NCBI GenBank assembly: GCA_018652265.1
Contig: JABICL010000039.1
Coordinates: 7,287 to 71,286, forward strand
Direction of reading: 5' to 3'
DNA: 64,000 bases
Source: Candidatus Peribacteria bacterium
Lineage (GTDB): Bacteria; Patescibacteriota; Gracilibacteria; Peribacterales; Peribacteraceae
Shown: in pieces, positions 2,962 through 61,526 of the stretch
Layout of the letters: each line of letters begins with the position of its first letter
Position numbering within the stretch: the first letter of the stretch is position 1
The notes under the pieces: generated by a model
What the model was told of the DNA's origin: nothing
What the model saw: the letters and a program-made list of their open reading frames with translations, nothing else
Databases searched by the model: none
Program-made: the position numbers and the translations under genes

Positions 2962-4047
2962 ATGGCTACAACCACTTCAACTACCGCAGGCGATACAACA
3001 CTACAATTCAATCTACAGGACATGATTTCTGACCTATTTCTTGTTCTCACAGAGAAAGAGCAAGAAGTAATAAAGAGACGTTTTTCTATTACAGGAAGCT
3101 CTAGACAAACTCTCGAGAAGATAGGTAAGCATTTCAATGTTACTCGTGAGAGGATTAGACAGATAGAAAGTATTGCTCTTAATAAGCTTAGAAGAACTGT
3201 AGGAACTACGAAGTTGGATGACATAAACCAAATGGCCAAGGGAATCCTCCGAGCAAATGGCGGACTTATGCTCGAAGAAAGTCTAATTGCTAGCATTCTA
3301 AAAAGAATGGAGAATCCTACACCTACAGATGCATCTGTTTTGAAACTGTCTCTCTCGATAGACGGAGAGCTTTCTCATATAGGTCGTACTGGTTCTCTCA
3401 AGCCAAGCTGGAGATTCAATAGCCTTGCTCAAAAAGACATAAATGTTATTACAAATGGCGCAGTAAAAATACTAAAGAGAAGAGAAGAATGTATGAACGA
3501 AACAGAATTAGTCTCTGCTATACAGAACTTAGAATTATTCGGAGAGAAGAAGCCAAGTGATGAATTAATAGCATCAGCTCTTACTGTAGATAGTAGACTG
3601 AAAAATGTAGAGGCAGGATGGGGAATTACAGATTGGAGATTCGTTCGTCCAAGATCCATAAGAGACAAAGTAGAAATAATCCTGAAGAAAGAAGGCAGAC
3701 CACTTCACTTTGTAGAAATCGCTAATCGAATACGTGAAGCTAATTTTGATCACAAGAATGTAACAGTACAAGCTGTCCATAATGAATTGATCAGATACCC
3801 ACAGTTCGTTTTAGTTGGCCGTGGACTTTATGGTCTTAGCGAGTGGGGATTTGAACCTGGAACAGTTGCTGATGTAATAGAGAAGATTCTTGACGAAAAA
3901 GGTCCTCTCACAAAGAAAGAAATAATCGCAGAAGTTGCAAAACAGAGAAAAGTAAAAGTAGGAACCATTTCTCTGAATTTGCAGAAAATGCCTTACTTCG
4001 TTCGAGTTGGTCGTGCAGTTTACGATTTCGATAAGAGTAAGAAATAA
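2962..4047 (+). CDS. Sigma-70 region-4 domain fused to two HARE-HTH (RNAP delta-like) domains
   Basis: 361 aa. LTEKEQEVIKRRF...QTLEKIGKHFNVTRERIRQIESIALNKLRR matches sigma70_r4. GRPLHFVEIANRI...FVLVGRGLYGLSEWG and GPLTKKEIIAEV...FVRVGRAVYDF match HARE-HTH. No region 2 is recognisable. Confidence 0.6.
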   Translation: MATTTSTTAGDTTLQFNLQDMISDLFLVLTEKEQEVIKRRFSITGSSRQTLEKIGKHFNVTRERIRQIESIALNKLRRTVGTTKLDDINQMAKGILRANGGLMLEESLIASILKRMENPTPTDASVLKLSLSIDGELSHIGRTGSLKPSWRFNSLAQKDINVITNGAVKILKRREECMNETELVSAIQNLELFGEKKPSDELIASALTVDSRLKNVEAGWGITDWRFVRPRSIRDKVEIILKKEGRPLHFVEIANRIREANFDHKNVTVQAVHNELIRYPQFVLVGRGLYGLSEWGFEPGTVADVIEKILDEKGPLTKKEIIAEVAKQRKVKVGTISLNLQKMPYFVRVGRAVYDFDKSKK

Positions 4048-6777: not shown

Positions 6778-6850
6778 ATCCCCAGAGTACGTTGATAGCC
6801 GCTGTAATGCAAGAATTCAAAAAGGAAAATCTTTCAAGATAACTTGCACT

Positions 6851-6966
6851 CCGCTCGCGTGCTTAAGACGGTATATGCGACGAAATCGACGTAACCCATC
6901 ACCGTTTATTACTTATCAGAGGTTTCGGATCGATTTCTTACGCAAAATACCGCCTGCACGCTTGCT
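6851..6966 (-). repeat. Family A long-hairpin repeat, copy A1 (centre type 1)
   Basis: Reverse complement of the consensus GCAAGCGTGCAGGCGGTATTTTGCGTAAGAAATC...GATTTCGTCGCATATACCGCCTTAAGCACGCGAGCGG. Lies between the divergent rpmA and rplK. Confidence 0.9.
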
Positions 6967-7071
6967 ACTTGGAATTTATAATTTGCTTGATTTTTGGTCC
7001 TCAAACCTTGAATTTCTCCATATATCCGTTTGACTTAATTATTTAGCCAAAGTACCCTTTCTGCACTTATT

Positions 7072-8195: not shown

Positions 8196-8200
8196 AAAAT

Positions 8201-8297
8201 ATGTCATGCTGAGCCGTACTGAGCGAGTGAGCACTTGAAGCAGAGCGACGAAGTCGCGATGCTTAAGTCTCGCGAGTCGAAGTGCGTGTCGAAGCAT
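8201..8297 (+). repeat. Family B repeat, copy B1
   Basis: ATGTCATGCTGAGCCGTACTGAGCGAGTGAGCACTTGAAGCAGAGCGACGAAGTCGCGATGCTTAAGTCTCGCGAGTCGAAGTGCGTGTCGAAGCAT. A long imperfect palindrome centred on GCGAC-GAA-GTCGC. Fills the gap between convergent stops. Confidence 0.9.
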
Positions 8298-10362: not shown

Positions 10363-10487
10363 CTAACTAGACCTACTCTCACGAAAAGCTCGATCTACCT
10401 CTTCCATTTCTTCATCATCCATCTCATCCTCTGCATCAAGCAGGAGATTTCAAATGAACTTCTTTTGTATCTCTGCTTTGAATATTA
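10363..10487 (-). pseudogene. Duplicated 3' fragment of the low-affinity iron permease gene (13507..13899)
   Basis: 10363-10450 matches 13507-13594 at 86/88 positions. After a ~38-nt deletion, homology continues to ~10487. There is no start codon and the frame is broken. Confidence 0.85.
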
Positions 10488-13506: not shown

Positions 13507-13899
13507 CTAACTAGACCTACTCTCACGAAAAGCTCGATCTACCTCTTCCATTTCTTCATCATCCATCTCATCCTCTGCATCCAGCAGAAGATTTCTTGCG
13601 TCTTCGTTTACAGCGATTAATTCATCTAATTTAAGATGAACTGCTTTTGTGTCTCTGTTCTGAGTATTCTGAAGTAGGAACACCATCAGAAAAGTAACTA
13701 TCGTGGTACTTGTATTTATCACAAGCTGCCAAGTATTGCTGTAATCAAATAATGGTCCAGAAATGAACCATACAAAAACAAAAAGACATGCACCCATAAA
13801 GGTCCACGAGGATCCAACTACTTTTCCAATCTTCTGAGAGACCTTACGAAAAAGCTTTGTAATAGGATTCACGCCCTTTTTTGTTCCATTTGTTTCCAT
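13507..13899 (-). CDS. Low-affinity iron permease family (Fet4-like, PF04120-type) membrane protein
   Basis: 130 aa. SSWTFMGACLFVFVWFISGPLFDYSNTWQLVINTSTTIVTFLMVFLLQNTQNRDTKAVHLKLDELI is the family signature. Confidence 0.75.
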   Translation of the reverse strand: METNGTKKGVNPITKLFRKVSQKIGKVVGSSWTFMGACLFVFVWFISGPLFDYSNTWQLVINTSTTIVTFLMVFLLQNTQNRDTKAVHLKLDELIAVNEDARNLLLDAEDEMDDEEMEEVDRAFRESRSS

Positions 13900-13971
13900 A
13901 TGAGTTTTATTTTTTATTTCACGTACATTATAACATTTTTTAGGCCATATGTGAATATCTATTGTAGCCCG

Positions 13972-14086
13972 CCGCTCACGTGCTTAAGGTGGTATATGCG
14001 ACGAAATCGACGTAACCCATCACCGTTTATTACTTATCAGAGGTTTCGGATCGATTTCTTACGCAAAATACCACCTGCACGCTTGC
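13972..14086 (-). repeat. Family A repeat, copy A2 (centre type 1)
   Basis: Same as A1, but with the paired arm change GGTGGTAT / ATACCACC instead of GGCGGTAT / ATACCGCC. Confidence 0.9.
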
Positions 14087-14176
14087 TGCCCGGCATGTTC
14101 ATGCTGCTTGCCGACCGAAGCATATTGTTCCCAAAAACCGCTATTTCTGGTAAAATAGACAGATTTATACAACTTT

Positions 14177-23334: not shown

Positions 23335-23405
23335 TTCCTACTATTTTACCAGAAATAGCCGTTTTTTGGAATAATATGCTTCGACTCAGCCTGACATACA
23401 GAATA

Positions 23406-23520
23406 GCAAGCGAGCAGGCGGTATTTTGCGTAAGAAATCGATCCGAAACCTCTGATAAGTAATAAACGGTGATGGGTTACGTCGATTTCGTCGCATATAC
23501 CGCCTTAAGCGAGCGAGCGG
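23406..23520 (+). repeat. Family A repeat, copy A3 (centre type 1)
   Basis: GCAAGCGAGCAGGCGGTATTTTGCGTAAGAAATCGATCCGAAACCTCTGATAAGTAATAAACGGTGATGGGTTACGTCGATTTCGTCGCATATACCGCCTTAAGCGAGCGAGCGG. Confidence 0.9.
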
Positions 23521-23524
23521 AATG

Positions 23525-24079
23525 CTAAACAGAAATTAGCGACAATGCCTCATCGAAAGCACCATCTATCTTCCCTCTATCATTCTCAGTAGGCCTAGAA
23601 AGCACATAAGAAGATAGATCAACGCCTGCCTGCTGAAAGCTTCCAGATTCTGGAGCTGTTTCACCTCGTATTCCAATTCTGATTCTTGGAAAGATTTCTC
23701 CAATCTGTTCCACAATAGATTTAAGTCCATTATGAGATCCTGCACTACCAGAATCTTTCAGGCGAGTCATTCCAACTCCTAGGTCTATATCATCTGCAAG
23801 AACTAAAACATCTTTTGGTTCAAGCTTGTAAAAATCAATTATTTTTTTCACACATTCACCTGATCTATTCATATATGTAGCAGGCTTAACAAGTAGAGCA
23901 GGAGAGTCCTCAATATTTGCCTCCATTGTGTCTGCCATAAACTTCTGATTTGGCTGCCAATTAGATTCGCCAAATTTTTCTCCAATCTTATCTATCGCTG
24001 CAAACCCAACATTATGACGAGTTCCATCATAATCCTTTCCTGGATTACCTAGCCCAATGATTACTCTTTTTGGCTTCAT
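23525..24079 (-). CDS. pth: Peptidyl-tRNA hydrolase
   Basis: IIGLGNPGKDYDGTRHNVGF and SAGSHNGLKS motifs. Confidence 0.9.
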   Translation of the reverse strand: MKPKRVIIGLGNPGKDYDGTRHNVGFAAIDKIGEKFGESNWQPNQKFMADTMEANIEDSPALLVKPATYMNRSGECVKKIIDFYKLEPKDVLVLADDIDLGVGMTRLKDSGSAGSHNGLKSIVEQIGEIFPRIRIGIRGETAPESGSFQQAGVDLSSYVLSRPTENDRGKIDGAFDEALSLISV

Positions 24080-26280: not shown

Positions 26281-26424
26281 AGTGGTTAGTGACTATGCTT
26301 CGACTCGCACTTCGACTCGTAGAACTTAAGCATCGCGACTTCGTCGCTCCGCTTCAAGTTCAACTCGCTCAGTACGGCTCAGCATGACATATTCATCACA
26401 ACTACCCACTACTCACTAACCACT
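26281..26424 (-). repeat. Family B repeat copy B2 (26295-26390) enclosed by a perfect 12-bp inverted repeat
   Basis: AGTGGTTAGTGA (26281-26292) and TCACTAACCACT (26413-26424) bracket the reverse-oriented B copy ATGCTTCGACTCGCACTTCG...GCTCAGCATGACAT. Confidence 0.85.
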
Positions 26425-26486: not shown

Positions 26487-28259
26487 ATGTGTGGAATCTT
26501 TGGTTATGTAGGAAATAGAAAGGATGCAGGACGCATCGTAGTTCGTGGCATAAAGAGCCTAGAATACAGAGGATACGATTCTTGGGGAGTAGCTAGAATG
26601 ATTGATGGAGATATTTTTATAGAAAAAAATGTAGGAAAGATTGGAGGAGTAAATCCAGAATCATTTTCTGAACTTAGCAGTATAGCGATCGCTCATACGC
26701 GTTGGGCAACACACGGTGGAGTAACAAAAGAAAATGCTCACCCTCATATTTCTTGTGATAAGAAAATTTCAGTAGTTCACAATGGAATCATAGAAAATTA
26801 CCAAGAGCTTAGAGAGGAGCTAAAAAACAAAGGTCATACATTCACATCCGAAACAGACACAGAAATCATATGTCATATGATCGCAGAGAATCTAAAAACC
26901 AGTAAGGATCTTCCAGAGGCAGTTAGAATTACATGTCAGAGATTTGAAGGTCGTTACGGATTTCTTATTATAAACACTGAAACAAATGAGCTAATAGCAG
27001 CTCGAACAGGATCTCCACTTATTGTAGGAAGAGGAGAAGATGAAACCTTCATAGCTTCAGATATTCCTGCATTCATGGAGCACACAAAAACTGTAAATTA
27101 CATAGACGATGGAGAAATGGTAATAACAGACGGAAAAGAAACTCGTTTCTATGAAATAAATTCAGGCAAAGAAATAGATAAAAGAAATGTAGAAATCACT
27201 CTGGATATAGAGGAAGCAAAGAAGGGTGAATACGAGCACTTCATGTTAAAAGAAATAATGGATCAGAAAGATACTATTGCTAGAGCAGTGAACCAAGACG
27301 AAGAACAGATTCAAACAATTGCAAATGCTATTCGCGATGCCCAAGGAACATTCTTATCTGCCTGCGGAACTGCCGGAAAGGTTTGTATGGCATCTGAGTA
27401 CTTCTTCTCTGTAGTTGCAGAGAAACATGTAAATTTCACTCCAGCATCTGAGTTTCCTATATACCATCATTTCTTGGTGCCAGAGAGTTTGCTTATTGTG
27501 GTCTCACAAAGTGGAGAAACTGCAGACGTACTAGAAGCTATGAAAGTCGCAAAGTCTAAGAGGGCAAAGGTTCTCGCAGTAGTAAACTCAGAAGGATCTA
27601 CGATAGATAGAGAAGCAGATTACACATTGCTTATAAATGCAGGCCCAGAACGAGCTGTAGCCTCCACAAAAGCTGCTACAGGACAAATGGCAGTTATGCT
27701 TCTGGTTGCTTATGCACTTGCAGATAAACTAAACGAGGGAAGGGCAGTGCTGCTAGAAACTGCTTCTATGATTAATGACATGTTGAATCCTAGATATATG
27801 GAACACGTATCTGGAATCGCGGAAAATATAAAAGAAGAAGAGAACGTATACATAATAGGAAAAAGTTGGAATTATCCTATGGCACTAGAAAGTGCTATAA
27901 AAATTCAAGAAGTAAGTTATGTTCATGCAGAAGGATTTGCAGGCGGAGAACTTAAACATGGTCCTATAGCTTTGATCCAAAAAGGAACTCCTTGTATTGC
28001 ACTGATCGGTAATGATGAAACCAAAATGGACACTCTAAGTAATACCATAGAACTAAAAGCCAGAGGTGCTCACATAATAGGAGTAGCACCAGAAAATAAT
28101 GAAGTTTTCGATGAATGGATAAAAGTACCAGATGCAGAAACTGCTCAGGCAATAGTAAACATAATTCCTATCCAAGTCCTCGCATATTATCTCGCAATTA
28201 AACGAGGTAAAGATCCGGATATGCCAAGGAATTTGGCGAAGAGTGTGACGGTTAAATAG
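26487..28259 (+). CDS. glmS: Glutamine--fructose-6-phosphate aminotransferase
   Basis: MCGIFGYVG Ntn start, two SIS domains, and the C-terminal LAKSVTVK. A TACAAT -10 box sits 6 nt before the ATG. Confidence 0.95.
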   Translation: MCGIFGYVGNRKDAGRIVVRGIKSLEYRGYDSWGVARMIDGDIFIEKNVGKIGGVNPESFSELSSIAIAHTRWATHGGVTKENAHPHISCDKKISVVHNGIIENYQELREELKNKGHTFTSETDTEIICHMIAENLKTSKDLPEAVRITCQRFEGRYGFLIINTETNELIAARTGSPLIVGRGEDETFIASDIPAFMEHTKTVNYIDDGEMVITDGKETRFYEINSGKEIDKRNVEITLDIEEAKKGEYEHFMLKEIMDQKDTIARAVNQDEEQIQTIANAIRDAQGTFLSACGTAGKVCMASEYFFSVVAEKHVNFTPASEFPIYHHFLVPESLLIVVSQSGETADVLEAMKVAKSKRAKVLAVVNSEGSTIDREADYTLLINAGPERAVASTKAATGQMAVMLLVAYALADKLNEGRAVLLETASMINDMLNPRYMEHVSGIAENIKEEENVYIIGKSWNYPMALESAIKIQEVSYVHAEGFAGGELKHGPIALIQKGTPCIALIGNDETKMDTLSNTIELKARGAHIIGVAPENNEVFDEWIKVPDAETAQAIVNIIPIQVLAYYLAIKRGKDPDMPRNLAKSVTVK

Positions 28260-28367
28260 GTATTTTAGGTACATTAGGTATCGTAGGTAATGTAGGCAGA
28301 ATTTAATTCGTCGTATTAAATTTGTACCTAAATTACTTAAAGTACCTAAGATACATAAAATACCTAA
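28257..28367. repeat. T1: ~110-bp palindrome built from 5 x TAGGTAnnn and 5 x TACCTAnnn units at a 9-bp period
   Basis: TAGG(T/C)A starts at 28257, 28266, 28275, 28284 and 28293. TAC(C/T/A)TA starts at 28325, 28334, 28343, 28352 and 28361. The arms are about 75-80% complementary. The first unit contains the glmS stop codon. Confidence 0.9.
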
Positions 28368-28423
28368 CACGAGCAGGTCGAACCAGTCTGCCTTTCGGCA
28401 GACCGGCTCTTCGCGAATCTCAC
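28364..28423 (-). CDS. Candidate mini-ORF 1 inside the 3' element (19 aa, MRFAKSRSAERQTGSTCSC)
   Basis: GGAGG is 6 nt upstream of a GTG start. The equivalent SD+start+short ORF is present in all three element copies. Coding status is unproven. Confidence 0.25.
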   Translation of the reverse strand: MRFAKSRSAERQTGSTCSC

Positions 28424-28478
28424 GTTTAGCCTCCTTCCTTTGGCTAAGGATTCACGACAGTGTTCACATGTGTTTCGG
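28366..28478 (-). repeat. STAS-unit 3' structured element, copy 1
   Basis: Minus strand: CACATGTG, CGTGAATC, [TTAGCC-loop with GGAGG-GGCTAA], GAGATTCGCG, CCGGTCTGCC-GAAA-GGCAGACTGG, TTCGACCTG. About 90% identical to copy 2. Confidence 0.85.
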
Positions 28479-28844
28479 CTAGAATTCCAGCAACGCCACT
28501 TCGCGATTTTCGTGGATATCGAAAGTAAGATATAGCTTTGTAGCCTTGAAGAGACCTGCGTAGACATCTTCAGAAATTCCGCAAAGTTTGAGATTCTTTG
28601 CTGAGCTTGTTACCCTCTCCAGCTTTTTTTGCAGGGTCATCAGCTTGCCAATAAACACACTGCTTGTTTGCTGAATCACAGAGAAATCGATCAACACTTT
28701 CCTTTTGCCATCCTTCTCAACTAGGGCAAATAGTCTTTCTCCAGCATGGAGAATGAGCGTCTCGTTCGTGAGCTGCTCTGCAGCAGGAGTGACAACTGTC
28801 ACACCATCCACATCTTCAACTTGCAATTCCGCTGTTTCTTTCAT
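28479..28844 (-). CDS. STAS-domain protein (anti-sigma-factor-antagonist-like), paralog 1
   Basis: 121 aa from MKETAELQVEDVDGVTVV. KVLIDFSVIQQTSSVFIGKL resembles the SpoIIAA DxS...S motif. SD GGAGTGGAG upstream. The longer ORF start at 28886 lies in the conserved leader. Confidence 0.7.
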   Translation of the reverse strand: MKETAELQVEDVDGVTVVTPAAEQLTNETLILHAGERLFALVEKDGKRKVLIDFSVIQQTSSVFIGKLMTLQKKLERVTSSAKNLKLCGISEDVYAGLFKATKLYLTFDIHENREVALLEF

Positions 28845-29054
28845 CGCTCCACTCCGTTTACAAGGATCAAAAATGTCCCCCGACACATGTTCACTACAAG
28901 TAGTAAGTCACTATGAAAGCCAAAAATCAATCAGAATCGGGGTAATTTTACACAGGTCGAACCAGCCTGCCTTTCGGCAGACCGGCTCCTTGTGAATCTC
29001 ACGTTTAGCCTCCTTTCTTTGGCTAAGGATTCACGGATTGTCACATGTGTTTTA
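28845..29054 (-). repeat. Conserved inter-STAS scaffold (leader of paralog 1 plus 3' element copy 2)
   Basis: The 3' element is at 28945-29054. The leader core GTGACTTACTACTTGTAGTGAACATGTG and TTGATTTTTGG are shared with 29418-29636. Confidence 0.85.
28931..29002 (-). CDS. Candidate mini-ORF 2 (23 aa, MRFTRSRSAERQAGSTCVKLPRF)
   Basis: GGAGG, then CTAAAC, then a GTG start. Same position as mini-ORF 1. Confidence 0.25.
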   Translation of the reverse strand: MRFTRSRSAERQAGSTCVKLPRF

Positions 29055-29417
29055 CTAGAAGTCGACGAGAGCGTCTTCACGATTACCATCAAAGACGTCG
29101 AAAAACTGTACAAGATTGGTCATTGTGAAGACTTCAAAAACATCTCGCTTCATTCCACAGAACCTCATTTTTCGTGGCTGACCCCGAACCCATTTCTTAC
29201 TGATATTCATCAACATACCAAGGGCAGGGGAACTAGGAAATTCCATATTGCAGAAATCAACCAGAACCTTATTAGCCCCTTCTTCAAACACCGCAGTGAG
29301 CACCGTCCTGACTGACCCGGTCTGTTCGGATCCAAGGAATTGTGGATCCATTATGGTCAATACGGAAACTCCTCCTACCACTTCAACATTGGGTTCAGTA
29401 CTTTGTGTTGGATCCAT
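29055..29417 (-). CDS. STAS-domain protein, paralog 2
   Basis: 120 aa from MDPTQSTEPNVEVVGGVSVLTI. KVLVDFCNMEFPSSPALGML motif. SD AAGGAGTG upstream. Confidence 0.65.
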   Translation of the reverse strand: MDPTQSTEPNVEVVGGVSVLTIMDPQFLGSEQTGSVRTVLTAVFEEGANKVLVDFCNMEFPSSPALGMLMNISKKWVRGQPRKMRFCGMKRDVFEVFTMTNLVQFFDVFDGNREDALVDF

Positions 29418-29636
29418 CTCTCTACACTCCTTTGAAGGAACGATTCGAATATTTTGCACACATGTGCACTATCAAATAGTAAGTCACTCTGAAAGGCAAA
29501 AATCAATCATTATCATGATAATTTTACACAGGTCGAACCGGCCTCCCTGTAACAGGAAGCCGGTTTTTCGTGAATCTCATATGCCACCTCCTTTCGGGTT
29601 GGTTGGGATTCACGGATGTTCACATGTGTTTCGGAG
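29418..29636 (-). repeat. Conserved inter-STAS scaffold (leader of paralog 2 plus 3' element copy 3)
   Basis: The 3' element is at 29524-29636, with the hairpins kept but their sequence changed: CCGGCTTCCTG-TTAC-AGGGAGGCCGG, and CCAACC..GGTGG replacing TTAGCC..GGCTAA. Confidence 0.85.
29524..29580 (-). CDS. Candidate mini-ORF 3 (18 aa, MRFTKNRLPVTGRPVRPV)
   Basis: GGAGG, then TGGCAT, then an ATG start. Only the first ~7 residues are shared with mini-ORFs 1 and 2. Confidence 0.25.
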   Translation of the reverse strand: MRFTKNRLPVTGRPVRPV

Positions 29637-29981
29637 CTAGAAGCCCTCGAGGGCTTCTTCGAGCGTGTCGAAGATGTCGAAGAGCCTGTTTAGCAGGCTG
29701 ATAGTAAAGACTTCAAGTGGCTGGCCAGAAATGCAACAAAATCTTAGTCTACTTTTTGCGTTTTTCGCCCTCTTATTCATTGTAGTGAACTTGCTAAGCG
29801 CTGCAGTATGCAGATACTTGACATTCGAAAAATCTAATATTATTTTCTTTCTTCCATCCTCATCAACGAGACCAAACATTTGATTTCCCATGATTTGAAT
29901 GTTGCCCTCGTCCATAATCTTTTCATCCACAAATTTCACGACAGTCACGCCACCAATTTCCTCGATTTCTATTCTTCGCAT
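29637..29981 (-). CDS. STAS-domain protein, paralog 3
   Basis: 114 aa from MRRIEIEEIGGVTVVKFV. KIILDFSNVKYLHTAALSKF motif. SD ACGGAGTGG upstream. Confidence 0.7.
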   Translation of the reverse strand: MRRIEIEEIGGVTVVKFVDEKIMDEGNIQIMGNQMFGLVDEDGRKKIILDFSNVKYLHTAALSKFTTMNKRAKNAKSRLRFCCISGQPLEVFTISLLNRLFDIFDTLEEALEGF

Positions 29982-30070
29982 TTCAACCACTCCGTTTTGA
30001 AAGGACAATTCGAATATTTCGCACACATGTGCACTACAAGTAGTAAGTCACTACTTGGCAAGTATTACAA
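29982..30070 (-). repeat. Conserved leader of STAS paralog 3
   Basis: AGTGACTTACTACTTGTAGTGCACATGTGTGCGAAATATTCGAAT...ACGGAGTGG is near-identical to the paralog 2 leader. Confidence 0.8.
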
Positions 30071-30115
30071 GAAATATCTTTGGATTCTTATTTGAAAACA
30101 TGCAAAGTATTATTA

Positions 30116-30218
30116 TAGGTATGGTAGGTATTGTACGTAATGTAGGTACAGACTTAATCCTACAAATTAAATGCTACCTACATTACCTACGATACCTACT
30201 GTACTTACAATACCTAAG
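30116..30218. repeat. T2: second 9-bp-periodic TAGGTA/TACCTA palindrome
   Basis: TA(G/C)GTA starts at 30116, 30125, 30134 and 30143. TAC(C/T)TA starts at 30175, 30184, 30193, 30202 and 30211. 30177-30198 is the exact reverse complement of 28275-28296 (22/22). It ends 2 nt before the PBP stop. Confidence 0.9.
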
Positions 30219-30220
30219 CC

Positions 30221-32749
30221 CTATTTCTCATCCGGAGGTATTCCGTAATAGTCAAACAACACCTTAGAAACCTCCTTAAATACCGGTGCAGCGGACTGGG
30301 AGCCATATTCCACAGTTCTAGGACGATCAAATTTTACTATCATTACAAATCTAGGCTTATCTACAGGAGCATATCCAGCAAAAGAGGTAATAGAAGATCC
30401 ACTTCCAGTGCTTTCATATTTACCACCAGGACCAGCTATCTGACTGGTGCCAGTTTTTCCAGCCATACGATATCCATCTACTTTTGCAGCACGAGCAAAT
30501 CCTTCATTCATACCCTTTGTAAGCATTGCAGTTACTGTTGCTGCAGCTTCTTCTGTAATTACTTGTTCCAAGGTCTTTGAATAAACTTCTTCTATAGTTC
30601 CATCCGAATCAATCCAACTATCTATTATTGTAGGCTTCACAAGCTTGCCTCCATTTGCAAGTACAGAGAAAGCAGTAACAATTTGAAGTGGAGTAGCAGA
30701 AATTCCCTGACCATAAGAAGCAGTAGCGAGCAGAGCATCACTCCATCTTCTCCAATCCAAAACATTACCTGGCTTTTCATCTTCAAGCTGAATTCCAGTT
30801 ATACGACCAAAACCAAATCTCTTTATGTAGTTTGCAAAAAGTTTCTTACCAAGTTTTCTAGAGACATGCGTCATACATGTATTTACAGAATATGAAAGAC
30901 AATCCGTCATAGTTACCTCATCGAAAACTCTATTTTCTGCATTGGCAATAATATATTCGTCTATCTCTACAGTACCTTCATCTAAGTACATATCATCTGG
31001 AGTTATCTCCCCCTGATCTATTGCTATAGACATTGTAATAGGCTTAAAAACAGATCCAGGCTCATATATTTCTTGGCTAATACGATTTATATAAGCACCC
31101 ACTCCTATGCGATTTTTATATCTAAGCCAGTGATAATCTCCATCATTTCCACGCTCTAGGAATAGTTCGAAACGATTATTTTCACCTGTATATAAGAAAT
31201 ATCTCTTCAAATCATCTATGTCATAGTACTTCTCTAAATCTAGTAGCTCTTCCTGAAGCTCTCGACTCAAATGAACACGCCCCTCAGGAGTTGCATCATT
31301 CAAATATCCTCTCATTACCAGATCATTAGTTTCTGGATCTGCTATCTCTACTACTATGCTTGGGATCAAATCATCTGGAATATCGTAAGGCTCTTTTTTA
31401 AAAACCAAACTATAATTATTTGCATCCACAAGTGGAGCATTTGCAGCAACTATTATTCTGCCCGTAGAAGGATCCATTACAATTACTTGTCCACTATCTG
31501 CTTCGAACTCATCTACAGCTGCAGAAAGAATATTTTCTACTTTCTTTTGCAAAAATCTATCTATAGTTAGGATTACGCTTCTTCCATCCAAAGCATGGAT
31601 TATACTTTGATCATCTGAAACTATTTGTCCTCCAAAAGGATCAGTAAGCGCACTTATACGACCTTCTTGACCACGTAGATCATGATCGAAAGTTCTCTCT
31701 ATTCCATTTTGCGGTTGCTGATTAATATTTAAAAATCCTGCAATCTGAGATGCTACAGTTCCATCTGGATATATTCTCCAATGTTCAGGAATAAGTGCTA
31801 TTCCACGCAATGGATCATAAATATTATTTGCCGTTTCTTTATCTCCTCTTTTTATAAGCTCCTTTCTCTGCTGCGCAGTACGTTCTATTGATTCTTTCTT
31901 AAGCGATTTTATCCTCTTGGAAAACTCTGGCTTTATCCTTCTCATTATAGGTACATATCTAAGCCTTCTTTTTACTAATCTCTCTCGTATAAATTCAGGT
32001 TCAAGTGCAAGTGATGGAGAAATAATTTTTGCAATTCTGTGACGTTCATACTGAGGAATATGAACCGGATTCGCATACACAAGTTTACTGTTTTCTGATG
32101 CATAAATACCTGGTATACCAAACTCTTGAATTTTTCTTACCTGAACTTTGTTTGCTCCATACAAAAGCGGAATAAAAGATACAAACTCTTCATTTATTCT
32201 TTTAAAAATATCATTTGAAAATTGACCTCTTATTGTTTCTATAGGAAGTATAATTCTATTATTTGATTCACCTTCATCAGATTCGTTTATCTGATTATTT
32301 ATTTCTTTTAGAGGATCAAAGGCTGACTCATAGTACTCGCGAAGTTCGCGTGGACAATCTTTGTCTCCCTCTCTACACAGATTGTCATATTCTGTTATAA
32401 GTAATTCTTCTGCAAGAAGTCTCGAAACTGTACTCTTGTCATCCGTCACAAACGGATCTACATATAAAAGATCGAGAGTTGTATTTGTAGCCAAGATATT
32501 CAATTCATTTGTTTTGCTATTTCTACTAAGAATTTCACCTCTTTTAGCAGGAAGAACAATACCTCCGAAATGCTGTGCGCGAGCTATTTCCTCATATTCT
32601 GCTCCACGTATGATTTGTAGTTCTATAAGCCTTGCTACTATCACCAGAAGTATCACAAGCAAGATTCCATGAACTATCTCTATTCTACGCGAAAACATGC
32701 GCTTTCTATGCGTATCACTCACCTGGGAAGTAGTGCGATATCTCGCCAT
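30221..32749 (-). CDS. Class B penicillin-binding protein (PBP2/FtsI-type transpeptidase)
   Basis: Start set at MARYRTT, before the TM helix. SxxK (SVFK), SxN (SVN) and KTG (KTGTS) motifs. Long insertion-rich N-terminal module. Confidence 0.85.
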   Translation of the reverse strand: MARYRTTSQVSDTHRKRMFSRRIEIVHGILLVILLVIVARLIELQIIRGAEYEEIARAQHFGGIVLPAKRGEILSRNSKTNELNILATNTTLDLLYVDPFVTDDKSTVSRLLAEELLITEYDNLCREGDKDCPRELREYYESAFDPLKEINNQINESDEGESNNRIILPIETIRGQFSNDIFKRINEEFVSFIPLLYGANKVQVRKIQEFGIPGIYASENSKLVYANPVHIPQYERHRIAKIISPSLALEPEFIRERLVKRRLRYVPIMRRIKPEFSKRIKSLKKESIERTAQQRKELIKRGDKETANNIYDPLRGIALIPEHWRIYPDGTVASQIAGFLNINQQPQNGIERTFDHDLRGQEGRISALTDPFGGQIVSDDQSIIHALDGRSVILTIDRFLQKKVENILSAAVDEFEADSGQVIVMDPSTGRIIVAANAPLVDANNYSLVFKKEPYDIPDDLIPSIVVEIADPETNDLVMRGYLNDATPEGRVHLSRELQEELLDLEKYYDIDDLKRYFLYTGENNRFELFLERGNDGDYHWLRYKNRIGVGAYINRISQEIYEPGSVFKPITMSIAIDQGEITPDDMYLDEGTVEIDEYIIANAENRVFDEVTMTDCLSYSVNTCMTHVSRKLGKKLFANYIKRFGFGRITGIQLEDEKPGNVLDWRRWSDALLATASYGQGISATPLQIVTAFSVLANGGKLVKPTIIDSWIDSDGTIEEVYSKTLEQVITEEAAATVTAMLTKGMNEGFARAAKVDGYRMAGKTGTSQIAGPGGKYESTGSGSSITSFAGYAPVDKPRFVMIVKFDRPRTVEYGSQSAAPVFKEVSKVLFDYYGIPPDEK

Positions 32750-43078: not shown

Positions 43079-43099
43079 TTTAATCCGTTACAACAAAAT

Positions 43100-43189
43100 A
43101 TGTCATGCTGAGCCGTACTGAGCGAACGAGCACTTGAAGCGGAGCTGGCGACGCTTAAGTCTCGTGAGACGAAGTACGTGTCGAAGCAT
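43100..43189 (+). repeat. Family B repeat, copy B3 (7-bp shorter centre)
   Basis: ATGTCATGCTGAGCCGTACTGAGCGAACGAGCACTTGAAGCGGAGCTGGCGACGCTTAAGTCTCGTGAGACGAAGTACGTGTCGAAGCAT. Confidence 0.9.
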
Positions 43190-45676: not shown

Positions 45677-45767
45677 ATTTAATTACGGTTAAATTATGTC
45701 ACTATTCTAACCCGCAGTTTAGTAAACTCACTAATTTTCTTTGTTTTATATATACAAATCCAACGCA

Positions 45768-45823
45768 GCAAGCGTGCAGGCGGTATTTTGCGTAAGCTTT
45801 AAAGCTTAGCGAGCATGTGAGCG
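45768..45823 (+). repeat. Miniature family A derivative (two termini joined by a short loop)
   Basis: GCAAGCGTGCAGGCGGTATTTTGCGTAAG-CTTTAAAG-CTTAGCGAGCATGTGAGCG. Confidence 0.75.
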
Positions 45824-48728: not shown

Positions 48729-48742
48729 CAAAGTATGACATG
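48695..48742 (-). repeat. Degenerate B-like element overlapping the DHH paralog 2 stop
   Basis: ATGCTTCAACACGCACTTCAACAAACTCAGGATAACAAAGTATGACAT; compare ATGCTTCGACACGTACTTCG...CATGACAT. Confidence 0.6.
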
Positions 48743-48749
48743 ACAGGCA

Positions 48750-48855
48750 GCAAGCGTGCAGGCGGTATTTTGCGTAAGAAATCATTCTTGGGTACCAATA
48801 TATTATCAATCCCATGTTGATTTCGTCGCATATACCGCCTTAAGCACGCGAGCGG
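48750..48855 (+). repeat. Family A repeat, copy A5 (centre type 2)
   Basis: GCAAGCGTGCAGGCGGTATTTTGCGTAAGAAATCATTCTTGGGTACCAATATATTATCAATCCCATGTTGATTTCGTCGCATATACCGCCTTAAGCACGCGAGCGG. Confidence 0.9.
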
Positions 48856-48906
48856 GGTGCTTCTTGCTACTTTGGAGGTGATATCAAATAAGCTAATATA
48901 ATCAGG

Positions 48907-53379: not shown

Positions 53380-53445
53380 ACCAGAGGATATTAGGGAAAT
53401 ATTGCGTAATTGCAAGAATAGAAACAGGTTTTTGGGAACTAGGTA

Positions 53446-53666
53446 GCAAGCGTGCAGGCGGTATTATCCTGTTCTAGCCATCAAACTTAGCAAGCATGCC
53501 GTTTCATATTGCGTAAGCGATCTTTCAGCAGTCACGTTCCTTATTCGAATAAAACCACAAATTTAACCGTACCAGATAAAGTTGAGCTGCGTTGATCGCG
53601 ACGCAATATGAAACATTCAGCATGCGAGCGGACCTTATTCAGAATAAAAATTAAGCACGCGAGCAG
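53446..53666 (+). repeat. Composite family A locus: A-type termini bracketing a complete divergent A copy (53490-53631)
   Basis: Outer termini are GCAAGCGTGCAGGCGGTATTA and TTAAGCACGCGAGC. The inner copy is GCAAGCATGCCGTTTCATATTGCGTAAGCGATC...GATCGCGACGCAATATGAAACATTCAGCATGCGAGCGG, with perfectly complementary new arms. Confidence 0.75.
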
Positions 53667-55603: not shown

Positions 55604-55757
55604 ATCTGATCGGAGAAAATTTAAAATTTTAAATGTTAAATTTTAAAACATCTCTAAGCGTACACAGTATATTTAAAATTTAAAATTTATAATTTAAAAT
55701 TATCTCTGAAATACTAAATCTACGCAGTATTTGCCAATAAATATTATTAGCAGTTAT

Positions 55758-58894: not shown

Positions 58895-58932
58895 ACCTAT
58901 ACTTTATCACAAAATTTTGTATCTCAAATGTA

Positions 58933-59038
58933 GCAAGCGTGCAGGTGGTATTTTGCGTAAGAAATCATTCTTGGGTACCAATATATGATCAATCCCATGT
59001 TGATTTCATCGCATATACCACCTTAAGCACGCGAGCGG
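58933..59038 (+). repeat. Family A repeat, copy A8 (centre type 2; paired GGTGGTAT/ATACCACC variant)
   Basis: GCAAGCGTGCAGGTGGTATTTTGCGTAAGAAATCATTCTTGGGTACCAATATATGATCAATCCCATGTTGATTTCATCGCATATACCACCTTAAGCACGCGAGCGG. It overlaps the last 5 codons and the stop of 59023..59862. Confidence 0.9.
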
Positions 59039-59862
59039 GGCGCATCGTACTCTCCTTTAAGCACCAAAGTATCTTCTTCCAAACTAGGTGATTCACAAAT
59101 CAGCACTCCTCCTATATTTCTATCTTTAAGTACACCCACAAATTCTTTCCAGTTCGCATCACTTTCCTCAAACACAAGATGCTTTCTTTCTCCCTTTTCA
59201 CCATATTCAATGCCAGAATAATGCATATGCATATTAGACAAAGATTCCTCGCCTAAATATTTGGCATAAGTATCAAATAGCTGATTCCATTCTTCTTTTG
59301 AATTCCACATACCTTTGTATCTTGCGTGGATGTGAGCGAAATCAACACAAGGATACATATCAAATTCTTTGCCAAGTTCTAGAAGCTCTTCTAGAGTTCC
59401 AAACTGCGTTCCTTTTCCCATTGTTTCATATGCCAGATTCACATCTGGAAAATATTTATCTTTCTTATCTAGAATATCTTCAGTAGCATTTCTTACATTC
59501 TCGTACACATCAGTAGGATCCATGCCCAAGTAAAACGCTGAGTGAACACATACAGACTTAGCCCCACATATCTGCGCCATTGTGAGAGCTTGAAGTATTC
59601 GCTGCTTACTTTTTTCTAATTTCTCTTCTTCTTTTGCATTTAAGTTAACATAATACGGAGCATGAACAGTTAAAACTATATCTAGTTCCCGAGCTTTCCT
59701 TCCAACTTCTTCAATATGTTCAGTGTTCAGTGGAACTCTCTGTACCCATTCAAGTTCCATAGCATTTATTCCAAGCTCATGTGCTCTTTCAAGTCCTTTC
59801 AAAGTTCCACTAGGAGAAGGGGTTGAATGTGGCGAGCCTGCAACAGCAATACGTAGTGACAT
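59023..59862 (-). CDS. nfo: Endonuclease IV-like (AP endonuclease family 2 / xylose-isomerase-like TIM barrel)
   Basis: 279 aa. The pattern VHAPYYVNL ... VHSAF ... YETMGKG ... CVDFAHIHARY ... HMHYSG ... LICES is collinear with the Nfo metal ligands. Confidence 0.65.
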   Translation of the reverse strand: MSLRIAVAGSPHSTPSPSGTLKGLERAHELGINAMELEWVQRVPLNTEHIEEVGRKARELDIVLTVHAPYYVNLNAKEEEKLEKSKQRILQALTMAQICGAKSVCVHSAFYLGMDPTDVYENVRNATEDILDKKDKYFPDVNLAYETMGKGTQFGTLEELLELGKEFDMYPCVDFAHIHARYKGMWNSKEEWNQLFDTYAKYLGEESLSNMHMHYSGIEYGEKGERKHLVFEESDANWKEFVGVLKDRNIGGVLICESPSLEEDTLVLKGEYDAPRSRA

Positions 59863-59901
59863 CTAGTCTTATCATAGATCTCAAATTTCAAAACTCAAGT
59901 A

Positions 59902-60007
59902 GCAAGCGTGCAGGCGGTATTTTGCGTAAGAAATCATTCTTGGGTACCAATATATGATCAATCCCATGTTGATTTCGTCGCATATACCGCCTTAAGCACG
60001 CGAGCGG
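59902..60007 (+). repeat. Family A repeat, copy A9 (centre type 2)
   Basis: Nearly identical to A8, in the same orientation, on the other side of the nfo-like gene. Confidence 0.9.
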
Positions 60008-60056
60008 CGGCATTAGACTTTTGATTTCTCAAATTATCCAATATCATTAGATATGT

Positions 60057-61409
60057 ATGCCACTTTCACAAGAAATAATAGACAGAACTCTAGCAACGCC
60101 CCAGGGCACTGCTGCTTATCACATAGTAGAAAAGCTAACAGATGAAGGGCATGAGGCTTGGTGGGTAGGAGGATGTGTAAGAGATATGCTAATCGATGAA
60201 ATTCCAGAGGATATAGATATAGCTACTTCTGCTCTTCCAGATGAAATAAAAAAACTTTTCGAAAAACATGATGCAGCTTCAGAAAGTTACGGCAGCATAT
60301 TGGTAGCAAGCGGGGGAGATGTATTTGAACTAACTACATTTCGTGAAGATTCTGCAGCATCAGACGGACGACATCCTGAAAATGTAATCTTTACCAAAGA
60401 AAAAGAAAAAGATGCTGCAAGGCGCGATGTAACTATAAATGCTTTGTACTATCATCCGATATCCGGAGAATTATTTGATCCATTCGAAGGAGAAAAAGAC
60501 TTGAATGAAAGACTTATAAGAATAATAGGAGATGCAGAAAAAAGAATAGAAGAAGATAATCTAAGATTACTTCGAGTAATAAGATTCAAAGCTTATATAG
60601 AAGGTCAGTATCATCCAGATACTTTCAAGGCACTTCACAAGAAATCTAAATCTATTGAAAAGCTGTCAGGCACTAGAAGATTTAAAGAAATAGAAAAAAT
60701 ACTACTTGGACCACATCCAGAAATTGCATTAGAAGATTTATGGGAGACAGACATACTTGAATACTTACTTCCTGAGGTTCACGCATGCAAAGGAGTAGCT
60801 CAGCCTGCTCATTTACATCCAGAAGGGGACGTTTGGAATCATGTAATGAGAATTTTATCTTCATTCACAGAAGACCATGAAAAAGACGTAAGATGGGCAG
60901 CTCTTTTTCATGACACAGGTAAGCCAAAAACATTTTCTATAGACGCCGATCGCATTCACTTCAATGATCATGCATCTGTAGGAGCAGATGTTACAAAAGA
61001 AGCACTGGATAGATTGCAATTCACATCAAGCCGAAGAGATAAAATTGCATGGCTCGTAAAACATCACATGATGATGGCTGCATTTTCGGAAATGGATGAC
61101 AAAAGAAAAGCTCATTGGTACTACCACCCGTGGTTCCTGGAGCTTCTACAGCTTTTTTGGCTAGATATGATAGGAACACAGGATTACAAAACAGATTTGT
61201 ACGATAAGATAATAGAAGACTACAACAAGTTTCTAGATGCTCATCCCAGACCAAAGAAGCCACTAATTTCTGGAGATGAAATTATGGATCTAATGGATAT
61301 AGAGCCAGGTGAAAAAGTAGGAGAGATACTTGAGATGCTTCACGAAAAACAAATCAAAAAAGAGATTACTTCGAAAAAAGAGGCGATGGAATTTATAAAG
61401 CAGCTTTGA
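60057..61409 (+). CDS. cca: CCA-adding tRNA nucleotidyltransferase with HD domain
   Basis: GGCVRD, DIDIAT, RRDVTINA and the HD motif (LFHDTGK). Confidence 0.85.
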   Translation: MPLSQEIIDRTLATPQGTAAYHIVEKLTDEGHEAWWVGGCVRDMLIDEIPEDIDIATSALPDEIKKLFEKHDAASESYGSILVASGGDVFELTTFREDSAASDGRHPENVIFTKEKEKDAARRDVTINALYYHPISGELFDPFEGEKDLNERLIRIIGDAEKRIEEDNLRLLRVIRFKAYIEGQYHPDTFKALHKKSKSIEKLSGTRRFKEIEKILLGPHPEIALEDLWETDILEYLLPEVHACKGVAQPAHLHPEGDVWNHVMRILSSFTEDHEKDVRWAALFHDTGKPKTFSIDADRIHFNDHASVGADVTKEALDRLQFTSSRRDKIAWLVKHHMMMAAFSEMDDKRKAHWYYHPWFLELLQLFWLDMIGTQDYKTDLYDKIIEDYNKFLDAHPRPKKPLISGDEIMDLMDIEPGEKVGEILEMLHEKQIKKEITSKKEAMEFIKQL

Positions 61410-61411
61410 GC

Positions 61412-61507
61412 ATGCTTCGACACGTACTTCGCCTTACAGAACTTAAGCATCGCGACTTCGTCGCTCTGCTTCAAGTTCAGCTCGCTCAGTACGGCTCAGC
61501 ATGACAT
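61412..61507 (-). repeat. Family B repeat, copy B4
   Basis: ATGCTTCGACACGTACTTCGCCTTACAGAACTTAAGCATCGCGACTTCGTCGCTCTGCTTCAAGTTCAGCTCGCTCAGTACGGCTCAGCATGACAT. It starts 3 nt after the cca stop. Confidence 0.9.
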
Positions 61508-61526
61508 AGTTAATAATGTTTTAATA

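Follow-up and report, generated by a model that had tools for sequence, protein, structure and literature searches.

Why should three neighbouring genes of one protein family have drifted apart until their synonymous sites are saturated, while the non-coding DNA around them has stayed nearly identical? The question is raised by a 1.96-kb block in a 64,000-nt stretch of DNA from an uncultured marine bacterium, which retrieval based on glmS places in the Peregrinibacteria/Peribacteria of the candidate phyla radiation (CPR). This whole stretch is called the window, and all coordinates refer to positions in it unless a locus of another genome, with a handle such as L032, is named. The block lies between the stop codons of two convergent genes, glmS (28257-28259) and a penicillin-binding protein (PBP) gene (30221-30223), and holds three minus-strand open reading frames (ORFs), STAS1, STAS2 and STAS3, set in a repeated non-coding scaffold. 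Such a combination of diverged coding and conserved non-coding DNA is unusual. The explanation that we favour, with confidence a little above an even chance, is that ancient STAS paralogs of foreign origin sit in functionally constrained flanks which recombine between units, and that units are gained or lost through the same repeats.

Conserved flanks around diverged STAS genes

In pairwise comparison, STAS1-3 are 30-35% identical in amino acids and 46-53% in codon-aligned nucleotides, with only 25-43% identity at third positions. The proportion of synonymous differences (pS) reaches 0.64-0.89, which amounts to saturation, and the non-synonymous proportion (pN) is lower than pS. The flanking modules, taken between closest copies, are 87-97% identical. 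For example, the 3' elements of units 1 and 2 are 94% identical over 83 nt (differences at 5/83 positions, loops and linkers included), spacer plus leader of the same units 87% over 76 nt, the leaders of units 2 and 3 90% over 41 nt, and the leader cores of units 1 and 3 97% over 31 nt. An exception is unit 3, whose 3' element is only about 72-74% like those of units 1 and 2. A preliminary description of the block had proposed a diverged coding core in a kept scaffold, with 3' elements 1 and 2 alike at nine positions in ten; the measurements bear out both, and the CDS (coding sequence) identity is far from being as high as the intergenic identity.

A tandem pair of STAS genes on a planctomycete-like contig (L077, 2180-3357, GC 61%) served as a control. 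These two genes, which are followed by a gene for an RsbW-type kinase, are 70% identical in amino acids and 78% in nucleotides, and their upstream regions about 73%. This is the pattern of ordinary duplication, and that of the STAS block is thus inverted relative to it. Furthermore, the scaffold is confined to the block within the window: the CACATGTG motif occurs 5 times in 64 kb, always inside the block, against 0.62 expected, and a covariance model of the 3' element gives its three copies 118-125 bits and the next-best match in the window 18 bits.

The repeat spacing, measured with a repeat finder, is 576-579 bp, close to the three units of about 575 bp described previously, and covers leader, STAS CDS and a 3' element with two hairpins. 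Along the minus strand, each unit runs from the leader through a 5' untranslated region (5'UTR) of 37-41 nt, the CDS and a post-stop palindrome to two GC-rich hairpins. The 5'UTR ends in GGAGTG(G), the strong Shine-Dalgarno (SD) sequence already noted before each start. The 30-nt leader core reads AGTGACTTACTAC/TTTG(A)TAGTG(A/C)ACATGTGT, and the leader has a -35-like TTGNCN followed, after 17-19 nt, by TGTAGT or GATAGT. A second CACATGTG palindrome lies 2-5 nt past each STAS stop codon, and each 5'UTR and CDS together are bracketed by an inverted pair of ~14 nt with a common CACATGTG core. Every unit is closed at its hairpin 2 end by an invariant GGTTCGACCTG. The two spacers that join the units are each ~40 nt long and 82% alike, and the array ends in half-elements, with a leader only upstream of STAS3 and a 3' element only downstream of STAS1. 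ORF calls confirmed the coordinates and content given in the preliminary description. Its claim that scaffold and STAS genes fill the whole gap is right for the interior, which the three units occupy, but the outer ~110 nt on each side are hairpins built of TAGGTANNN repeats. The features of the block are as follows.

28257-28366: left boundary hairpin, ~106 nt, with arms of a 9-nt TAGGTANNN tandem repeat; begins at the glmS stop codon; -42.3 kcal/mol
28374-28478, minus strand: 3' element of unit 1, with CACATGTG palindrome (28465-28472) and hairpins 1 and 2, ending in GGTTCGACCTG; 123 bits with the covariance model
28479-28844, minus strand: STAS1 CDS, 121 aa; no Pfam hit, SpoIIAA/RsbV-type fold
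28845-28913, minus strand: leader of unit 1, with core AGTGACTTACTACTTGTAGTGAACATGTGT, type-I 5'UTR and SD GGAGTGG
28914-28952, minus strand: spacer between units 2 and 1, with -35-like TTGGCT, 82% identical to the spacer at 29489-29528; putative promoter, from its sequence
28953-29054, minus strand: 3' element of unit 2, with palindrome (29042-29049) and hairpins 1 and 2; 124.7 bits
29055-29417, minus strand: STAS2 CDS, 120 aa; PF01740 with E=1.2e-6, without close relative
29418-29488, minus strand: leader of unit 2, with core and palindrome (29459-29466), type-II 5'UTR and SD GGAGTG
29489-29528, minus strand: spacer between units 3 and 2, with -35-like TTGCCT
29529-29636, minus strand: 3' element of unit 3, a divergent allele of both hairpins with stems largely paired; palindrome at 29621-29628; 117.8 bits
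29637-29981, minus strand: STAS3 CDS, 114 aa; PF01740 with E=7.5e-13, 60-67% identical to planctomycete RsbV-like proteins
29982-30110, minus strand: leader of unit 3 and upstream promoter-like region, with core (30023-30053) and palindrome (30024-30031); conserved with L032 from about 30081
30111-30216: boundary hairpin on the right, its arms likewise of TAGGTANNN repeats; its end is 4 nt away from the PBP stop codon; -46.0 kcal/mol

The array is no assembly artefact, because the same three units were found in more than 20 independently assembled contigs from different samples, ten of which, aligned base for base, are 99.9-100% identical. Among these near-identical contigs the order of the three units is always the same and no turnover of the array is visible.

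The STAS copies are not decaying, since none of their ORFs is broken, pN stays lower than pS and the phosphorylation column keeps its Ser/Thr. To judge from their saturated synonymous sites and pN below pS, they are old paralogs or xenologs rather than recent hypervariable copies. The earlier suggestion of diversifying modules thus finds no support, at least as diversification by point mutation. Similarly, a diversity-generating retroelement or other hypermutation was rejected, there being no reverse transcriptase or template repeat and the differences being saturated at all codon positions.

Sister species, host junction and protein family

The scaffold recurs across a species boundary. L032, the 275-kb contig Ga0233437_1000056 of a Joint Genome Institute (JGI) metagenome, represents a sister species, with a glmS that is 88% identical in nucleotides (synonymous divergence dS 0.64, non-synonymous divergence dN 0.029) and a dS of 0.50 in the C-terminal part of PBP. 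At the same glmS-PBP site it carries one STAS unit in the same scaffold. Its leader is 95% identical to that of unit 3 over 62 nt, the upstream promoter-like stretch included, with 97% in the leader core; its post-stop palindrome is 95% identical, and its 3' element scores 122.6 bits with the covariance model. The CDS in this scaffold, STAS4, has a GC content at third codon positions (GC3) of 0.50 and is 45% identical to STAS3 in amino acids (pS 0.855, dN 0.40), 36-38% to STAS1 and STAS2, and 55-60% to planctomycete RsbV. The scaffold is conserved above the neutral level (about 60% synonymous identity), but divergence of the CDS far exceeds that level. STAS3 and STAS4 are no plain pair of orthologs; each is closer to planctomycete RsbV than to the other. 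Exchange of the CDS and differential loss from a larger ancestral array would both fit.

In addition, the scaffold of the two species is a mosaic. In L032, hairpin 1 resembles that of unit 3 (89%, against 67% for unit 1), but hairpin 2 resembles that of unit 1 (95%, against 74% for unit 3). The 5'UTR has two types, of which unit 1 shares one with L032 and unit 2 the other with unit 3. A mosaic of this kind fits homogenisation by recombination between units, as the word homogenised in the preliminary description had implied. What surrounds the units differs by species: in the window it is the TAGGTANNN hairpins, and in L032 two direct copies (965-1085 and 1762-1850) of a repeat resembling miniature inverted-repeat transposable elements (MITEs) bracket the single unit. 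At 836-935 of L032 the last PBP codons (GGTATTCCTCCTGAYGARAA) occur twice, flanking a GC-rich insert of about 54 nt, which suggests that a repeat may have been inserted into the 3' end of PBP with the C-terminus regenerated.

The block is a compositionally foreign, lineage-specific insert. GC3 is 0.45-0.49 in STAS1-3 and 0.45-0.50 when STAS4 is included, against 0.23-0.27 in glmS and PBP. Overall GC is 43% in the block against a window mean of 38%, so that the earlier wording of a GC-rich block was overstated and the real signal lies in GC3. In about 20 Peribacteria relatives the STAS gene is absent from the glmS-PBP junction. The horizontal origin proposed earlier is therefore backed by a GC3 about twice that of the host genes, by planctomycete RsbV as nearest relative and by this absence.

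In the same relatives, glmS and PBP are convergent neighbours with a gap that ranges from 13 nt to 2.9 kb, and the cargo of the gap is varied and lineage-specific. Because both gap size and cargo vary, the junction is a general insertion hotspot in this lineage, a point that the preliminary description had missed. Short RpoD/RpoS-like sigma-70 genes were seen in the gap at L043 (4247-4981) and L046 (3624-4472), and genes for RAYT-like tyrosine transposases at L047 (4238-4846) and L053 (8191-8625), with other ORFs making up the rest of the cargo. Insertion of the Tn7 type at attTn7 was rejected for the STAS block, which holds only the three STAS ORFs, with no transposase domains in the window and no Tn7 ends.

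The boundary hairpins, likewise not described before, abut the glmS and PBP stop codons and are inverted copies of one another (86% over 80 nt) with only short direct matches. As such, Campbell-type integration via a flanking hairpin is disfavoured. They look native to the junction, because short TAGGT/ACCTA motifs occur at the same place in L041 and L069. Long hairpins with short-period repeat arms are found in many relatives' glmS-PBP gaps and are a habit of this lineage; at the same junction, L059 and L063 have periodic-arm hairpins of other repeat units (TTAGGG-like and GTGAATA-like, respectively). At 55610-55709, between the divergent genes priA and dnaK, there is a long AT-rich hairpin whose arms are periodic repeats of the AAATTTTAAAT type; periodic-arm hairpins thus extend beyond convergent junctions.

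Other repeats occur in the window. A GC-rich MITE-like intergenic family (ATGTCATGCTGAGCCGTACTGAGC...GAAGTRCGTGTCGAAGCAT), to which the two copies around the L032 unit also belong, is present at 8196-8297, 26290-26391, 43095-43189 and 61407-61508, with one copy just upstream of glmS. There is also a second GC-rich intergenic family with the core GCAGCAAGCGTGCAGGCGGTATTTTGCGTAAG ... GTTGATTTCGTCGCATATACCGCCTTAAGC, whose six copies are at 23393-23526, 45755-45796, 48737-48868, 53433-53474, 58920-59051 and 59889-60020. Long direct repeats pair 6846-6989 with 13967-14110 (89%) and 10363-10451 with 13507-13595 (98%), the last of which overlaps the start of an iron-permease ORF (13507-13899).

All three proteins of the block are single-domain SpoIIAA/RsbV-type STAS proteins. 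The family had been recognised before from its layout, and Pfam agrees for STAS2 (28.7 bits) and STAS3 (48.6 bits), which pass the PF01740 cut-off of 22.6 bits, but PF01740 does not detect STAS1. TIGR00377 matches STAS2 and STAS3, both under its cut-off. The assignment of STAS1 comes from phmmer, which gives 873 relatives, from blastp against PF01740-bearing proteins (38-43% identity, E about 1e-23) and from its fold. Structure modelling covered STAS1, and its AlphaFold model (pLDDT 91.5) has a TM score of 0.81 to SpoIIAA 1tid_B and also superposes on TM1442, RsbV 6m36 and Planctomyces STAS 3t6o (TM 0.79 to the latter). In the alignment, the phosphorylation column, at the N-terminus of helix 3 (DSSG-type motif), holds T in STAS3 and S in the other three proteins, STAS4 included. 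This column corresponds to the second S of the planctomycete YLSSAALG and, in the alignment with the PDB structure, to the Ser of the TM1442 motif YMDSAGLG, which we take to be the phospho-site.

All four STAS proteins have their closest relatives among the RsbV-like proteins of planctomycetes, and the identity of STAS3 to those of Gimesia and other Planctomycetes is 60-67%. For STAS1 and STAS2, a set of 5.8 billion proteins contains no close relative; their best distant matches are 33-44% identical, with 33-43% for those to the same planctomycete family. In a neighbour-joining tree with 200 bootstraps, STAS3 falls inside the planctomycete clade and STAS1 and STAS2 are weakly supported sisters (35/200). 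The planctomycete family is tightly conserved, whereas the CPR copies, with identities of 34-65%, have diverged much further. In every planctomycete locus inspected, the STAS gene is directly upstream of a gene for an RsbW-type HATPase_c_2 kinase, and the STAS scaffold is absent from the rsbV loci of Gimesia and other planctomycetes that were examined.

How the pattern may have arisen

On the explanation that we favour, the array would consist of three expression units, each complete in itself and each encoding a single-domain STAS protein with planctomycete affinity. Their CDSs would be paralogs or xenologs of ancient date, which had separated from one another, probably in a background richer in GC, before the lineages of the two known hosts parted. 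The modules around them would be functional and hence under purifying selection. Gene conversion and unequal crossing-over would, in addition, recombine these modules between units and give the observed kind of mosaic. The same repeats would allow the gain or loss of whole units, leaving the sister species with different STAS sets (STAS1-3 in one and STAS4 in the other). Such an array could supply several co-regulated variants of a STAS antagonist, all with a phosphorylatable Ser/Thr, whose kinase or anti-sigma partners may be encoded elsewhere. From family membership, an antagonist function is likely.

Several features of the flanks suggest function. The leader is a putative promoter, and the CACATGTG palindrome at the predicted transcription start would occupy an operator-like position. 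Over the four copies of the 3' element, base pairing is 94% in the outer stem of hairpin 1, where only one-side changes occur, and 98% in hairpin 2, where two changes affect both sides and four (G-U) one side; the both-side changes are, on the aligned sequences, compensatory and keep the hairpin 2 stem. In units 1 and 2, folding favours the sense over the antisense strand by about 10 kcal/mol. These hairpins could be a terminator, an insulator or a stabiliser-like RNA element. An Rfam scan of the block gave only sub-threshold, spurious miRNA-type matches on the boundary hairpins and none on 3' elements or leaders, and ARAGORN found no tRNA or tmRNA in it.

A number of results weigh on the other side. 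The high GC3 has persisted through residence across a species split (dS about 0.5-0.6), which simple amelioration does not explain, and no donor carrying the scaffold was found. The neighbour-joining tree gives no support to monophyly of STAS1-3 and is as compatible with separate imports as with a single one and rapid divergence thereafter. The preliminary description had noted that no kinase, phosphatase or sigma factor is adjacent, and this extends to all Pfam-annotated ORFs of the 64-kb window (the scope of every domain search in the window reported here), among which there is no RsbW-type HATPase_c_2 kinase, no PP2C phosphatase and no SigB/F-type or complete sigma factor. The proposed promoters did not stand out in a scan for consensus promoters, which showed no enrichment, and a terminator scan found no T-tract after the hairpins. 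In hairpin 1 of unit 3, the antisense strand has the slightly better fold, so that a role at the DNA level is possible. Moreover, with the scaffold in two genomes only, selection, gene conversion and CDS replacement are not statistically separable. The only sigma-related gene of the window is an ORF at 2962-4047 on the plus strand, whose 361-aa product has an unusual architecture, with sigma-70 region 4 alone at the N-terminus and a HARE-HTH domain (RNA polymerase delta-like).

A site-specific system analogous to integrons is an unlikely alternative, although much in the layout resembles one. In such a system the palindromes or hairpins would be the sites, and modules of 5'UTR and CDS would be imported or swapped singly by a recombinase encoded elsewhere. 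The inverted ~14 nt pair that brackets each of these modules would suit this, as would the limits of high similarity: in unit 1 and L032 it extends no further than the 5' palindrome, and it returns 2-5 nt past every stop codon. The different CDS in the same scaffold of the sister species and the closeness of STAS3 and STAS4 to planctomycete RsbV rather than to each other would also be accommodated, and the conserved hairpins could fold as single-stranded DNA. However, no integrase, recombinase or transposase domain was found in the window, and on reading the sequence there is no attC-type R''/L''-L'/R' layout and no GTTRRRY core, with no GTTRRRY/RYYYAAC pair on either strand of the two intergenic regions. 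All cassettes would belong to one protein family, each with its own promoter-like leader, unlike those of integrons. More than 20 contigs, taken from different samples, carry the identical array with no ongoing turnover in sight, and the breakpoints of the mosaic lie also between hairpins 1 and 2, not at the palindromes alone. The cassette-like organisation of the preliminary description is hence apt as description, with CDSs far below their flanks in identity and another CDS in the same scaffold in L032, but neither a recombinase nor an attC-like site was found with it in the window.

The chances are slimmer that the 3' element is mainly a cis-regulatory RNA. In that case, a conserved SD and the start codon of a mini-ORF would be buried in hairpin 1, and whether transcription terminates or continues into the next unit would depend on translation through hairpin 2. 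Conservation would be due chiefly to selection for this attenuator, a reading that could coexist with the favoured combination of selection and recombination. All four copies keep AAGGAGG, 6 nt, and a mini-ORF start (GTG in units 1 and 2, ATG in unit 3 and L032) followed by AGATTC; the start lies inside hairpin 1 and the frame reads through hairpin 2 in every copy (in unit 1 at 28364-28423 on the minus strand, in L032 at about 1638). On the sense strand, hairpin 2 also keeps G-U pairs. However, the start context is conserved and the peptide is not: a 2-nt longer loop shifts the frame in unit 3, and lengths vary from 18 to 35 aa. Furthermore, hairpin 2 is followed by no T-tract, the element of unit 1 has no downstream STAS gene to regulate, and no Rfam family matches.

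It is improbable that the scaffold is a mobile or generic intergenic repeat, akin to MITEs, repetitive extragenic palindromes (REPs) or bacterial interspersed mosaic elements (BIMEs), that colonised the spaces between pre-existing STAS paralogs, so that likeness would reflect recent spread. The genome does hold several families of GC-rich structured intergenic repeats, one of which flanks the STAS unit of L032; RAYT-like transposase genes occur in the same gap of two relatives, and the intergenic element as a whole is bounded by inverted CACATGTG motifs. However, BLAST and an unfiltered covariance-model search found no other copy in the window, and there is no scaffold copy in about 350 kb of relatives' loci except at the orthologous L032 site. 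There were 0 matches in GTDB species representatives, a set that does not include the source genome, and 0 in IMG/VR for two patterns. In JGI metagenomes, 19 of 20 matches were due to chance, having no second motif, and the one real match, by BLAST, was L032. The scaffold was thus nowhere seen beside unrelated genes, as a generic repeat would be, in the window or the relatives' loci. The half-elements at the array ends and the presence of both parts in the single L032 unit show that the repeated unit is leader, CDS and 3' element, not the intergenic piece.

Plain ancient tandem duplication, in which purifying selection alone would hold the non-coding parts and redundant CDSs would have drifted under relaxed constraint, is no more probable than a generic repeat. 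The much greater divergence of the CPR copies than of the planctomycete family would fit relaxed constraint after loss of the adjacent kinase. In addition, compensatory changes in the hairpins would be expected under long-term structural selection, and the scaffold is conserved between species above the neutral level. However, phylogenies of the segments clash (hairpin 1 against hairpin 2, the 5'UTR types, patches of the leader core), and recombination is therefore required. Differences at 5/83 positions between 3' elements 1 and 2, as against about 28% for unit 3, are uneven for selection alone, and copies that keep intact ORFs, pN below pS and the Ser/Thr are not decaying.

Least probable of all is a new kind of cassette distinct from integrons, in which palindrome-bounded STAS modules would be swapped by recombination into a fixed scaffold of promoter and hairpins at the glmS hotspot of an episymbiotic CPR host. 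The STAS repertoire, with no cognate kinase nearby, might then act as mimics or decoys of partner-switching, possibly that of another organism.

Comparison with known systems

The nearest protein relatives are the planctomycete RsbV-RsbW (BtrV-like) pairs of Gimesia and its relatives, which are alike in the single-domain STAS fold, the Pfam and TIGR00377 matches and the kept Ser/Thr, and to whose RsbV proteins STAS3 is 60-67% and STAS4 55-60% identical. They differ in having an RsbW-type kinase gene directly downstream, where the array has none in the window, in lacking the scaffold and in forming a tightly conserved family, whereas the CPR copies are far more divergent. Planctomycete-type components of partner-switching, without their kinase, are in this way documented in Peregrinibacteria.

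REP/BIME and MITE repeats share with the scaffold their GC-rich imperfect palindromes downstream of genes, and this genome and its relatives carry such repeats and RAYT-like genes. The STAS scaffold differs in not being dispersed: in the window and about 350 kb of relatives' loci it is limited to the array and the orthologous L032 site.

Integron cassette arrays are similar in more respects, such as units of ~0.6 kb in one orientation, similar hairpin repeats between dissimilar ORFs and a unit content that differs between related genomes. In the Vibrio chromosomal integron, for instance, the VCR/attC repeats are about 90% identical. Integron cassettes are mostly promoterless and of unrelated function, whereas each STAS unit has a promoter-like leader and an SD sequence, the proteins are of one family and about 210 nt are conserved, including a 5' leader. 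The window ORFs and the sequence contain no IntI, attI, attC layout or GTTRRRY core, and nothing points to an integron-like mechanism.

In their pattern of conservation, the erp genes of Borrelia, with their 'upstream homology box', and the vlp/vsp genes of Mycoplasma are comparable, with concerted flanks that outmatch the coding regions, a presumed common regulation and recombination between copies. Those genes encode surface lipoproteins under immune selection, and mainly their 5' region is conserved. The STAS array differs in encoding cytoplasmic regulators, in conserving both 5' and 3' flanks and in its CPR host.

None of these systems corresponds to the array as a whole. The preliminary description had not recognised a described system in it, and this still applies: there was no Rfam match to its leaders or 3' elements, no PADLOC match for any of the three STAS proteins, and nothing relevant in the literature on STAS proteins in CPR/Peregrinibacteria or on similar arrays. 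What distinguishes it, within the two uncultured genomes that the finding covers, is the inverted conservation, with flanks 87-97% identical around saturated CDSs, which recurs across a species boundary with a different CDS. It also provides candidates for cis-elements in a poorly charted lineage, namely the 30-nt leader core, the paired CACATGTG palindromes and the two-hairpin 3' element. If recombination between scaffolds is indeed at work, it would offer tiny CPR genomes a simple way, independent of any recombinase, to keep a changeable set of regulator variants under one control circuit.

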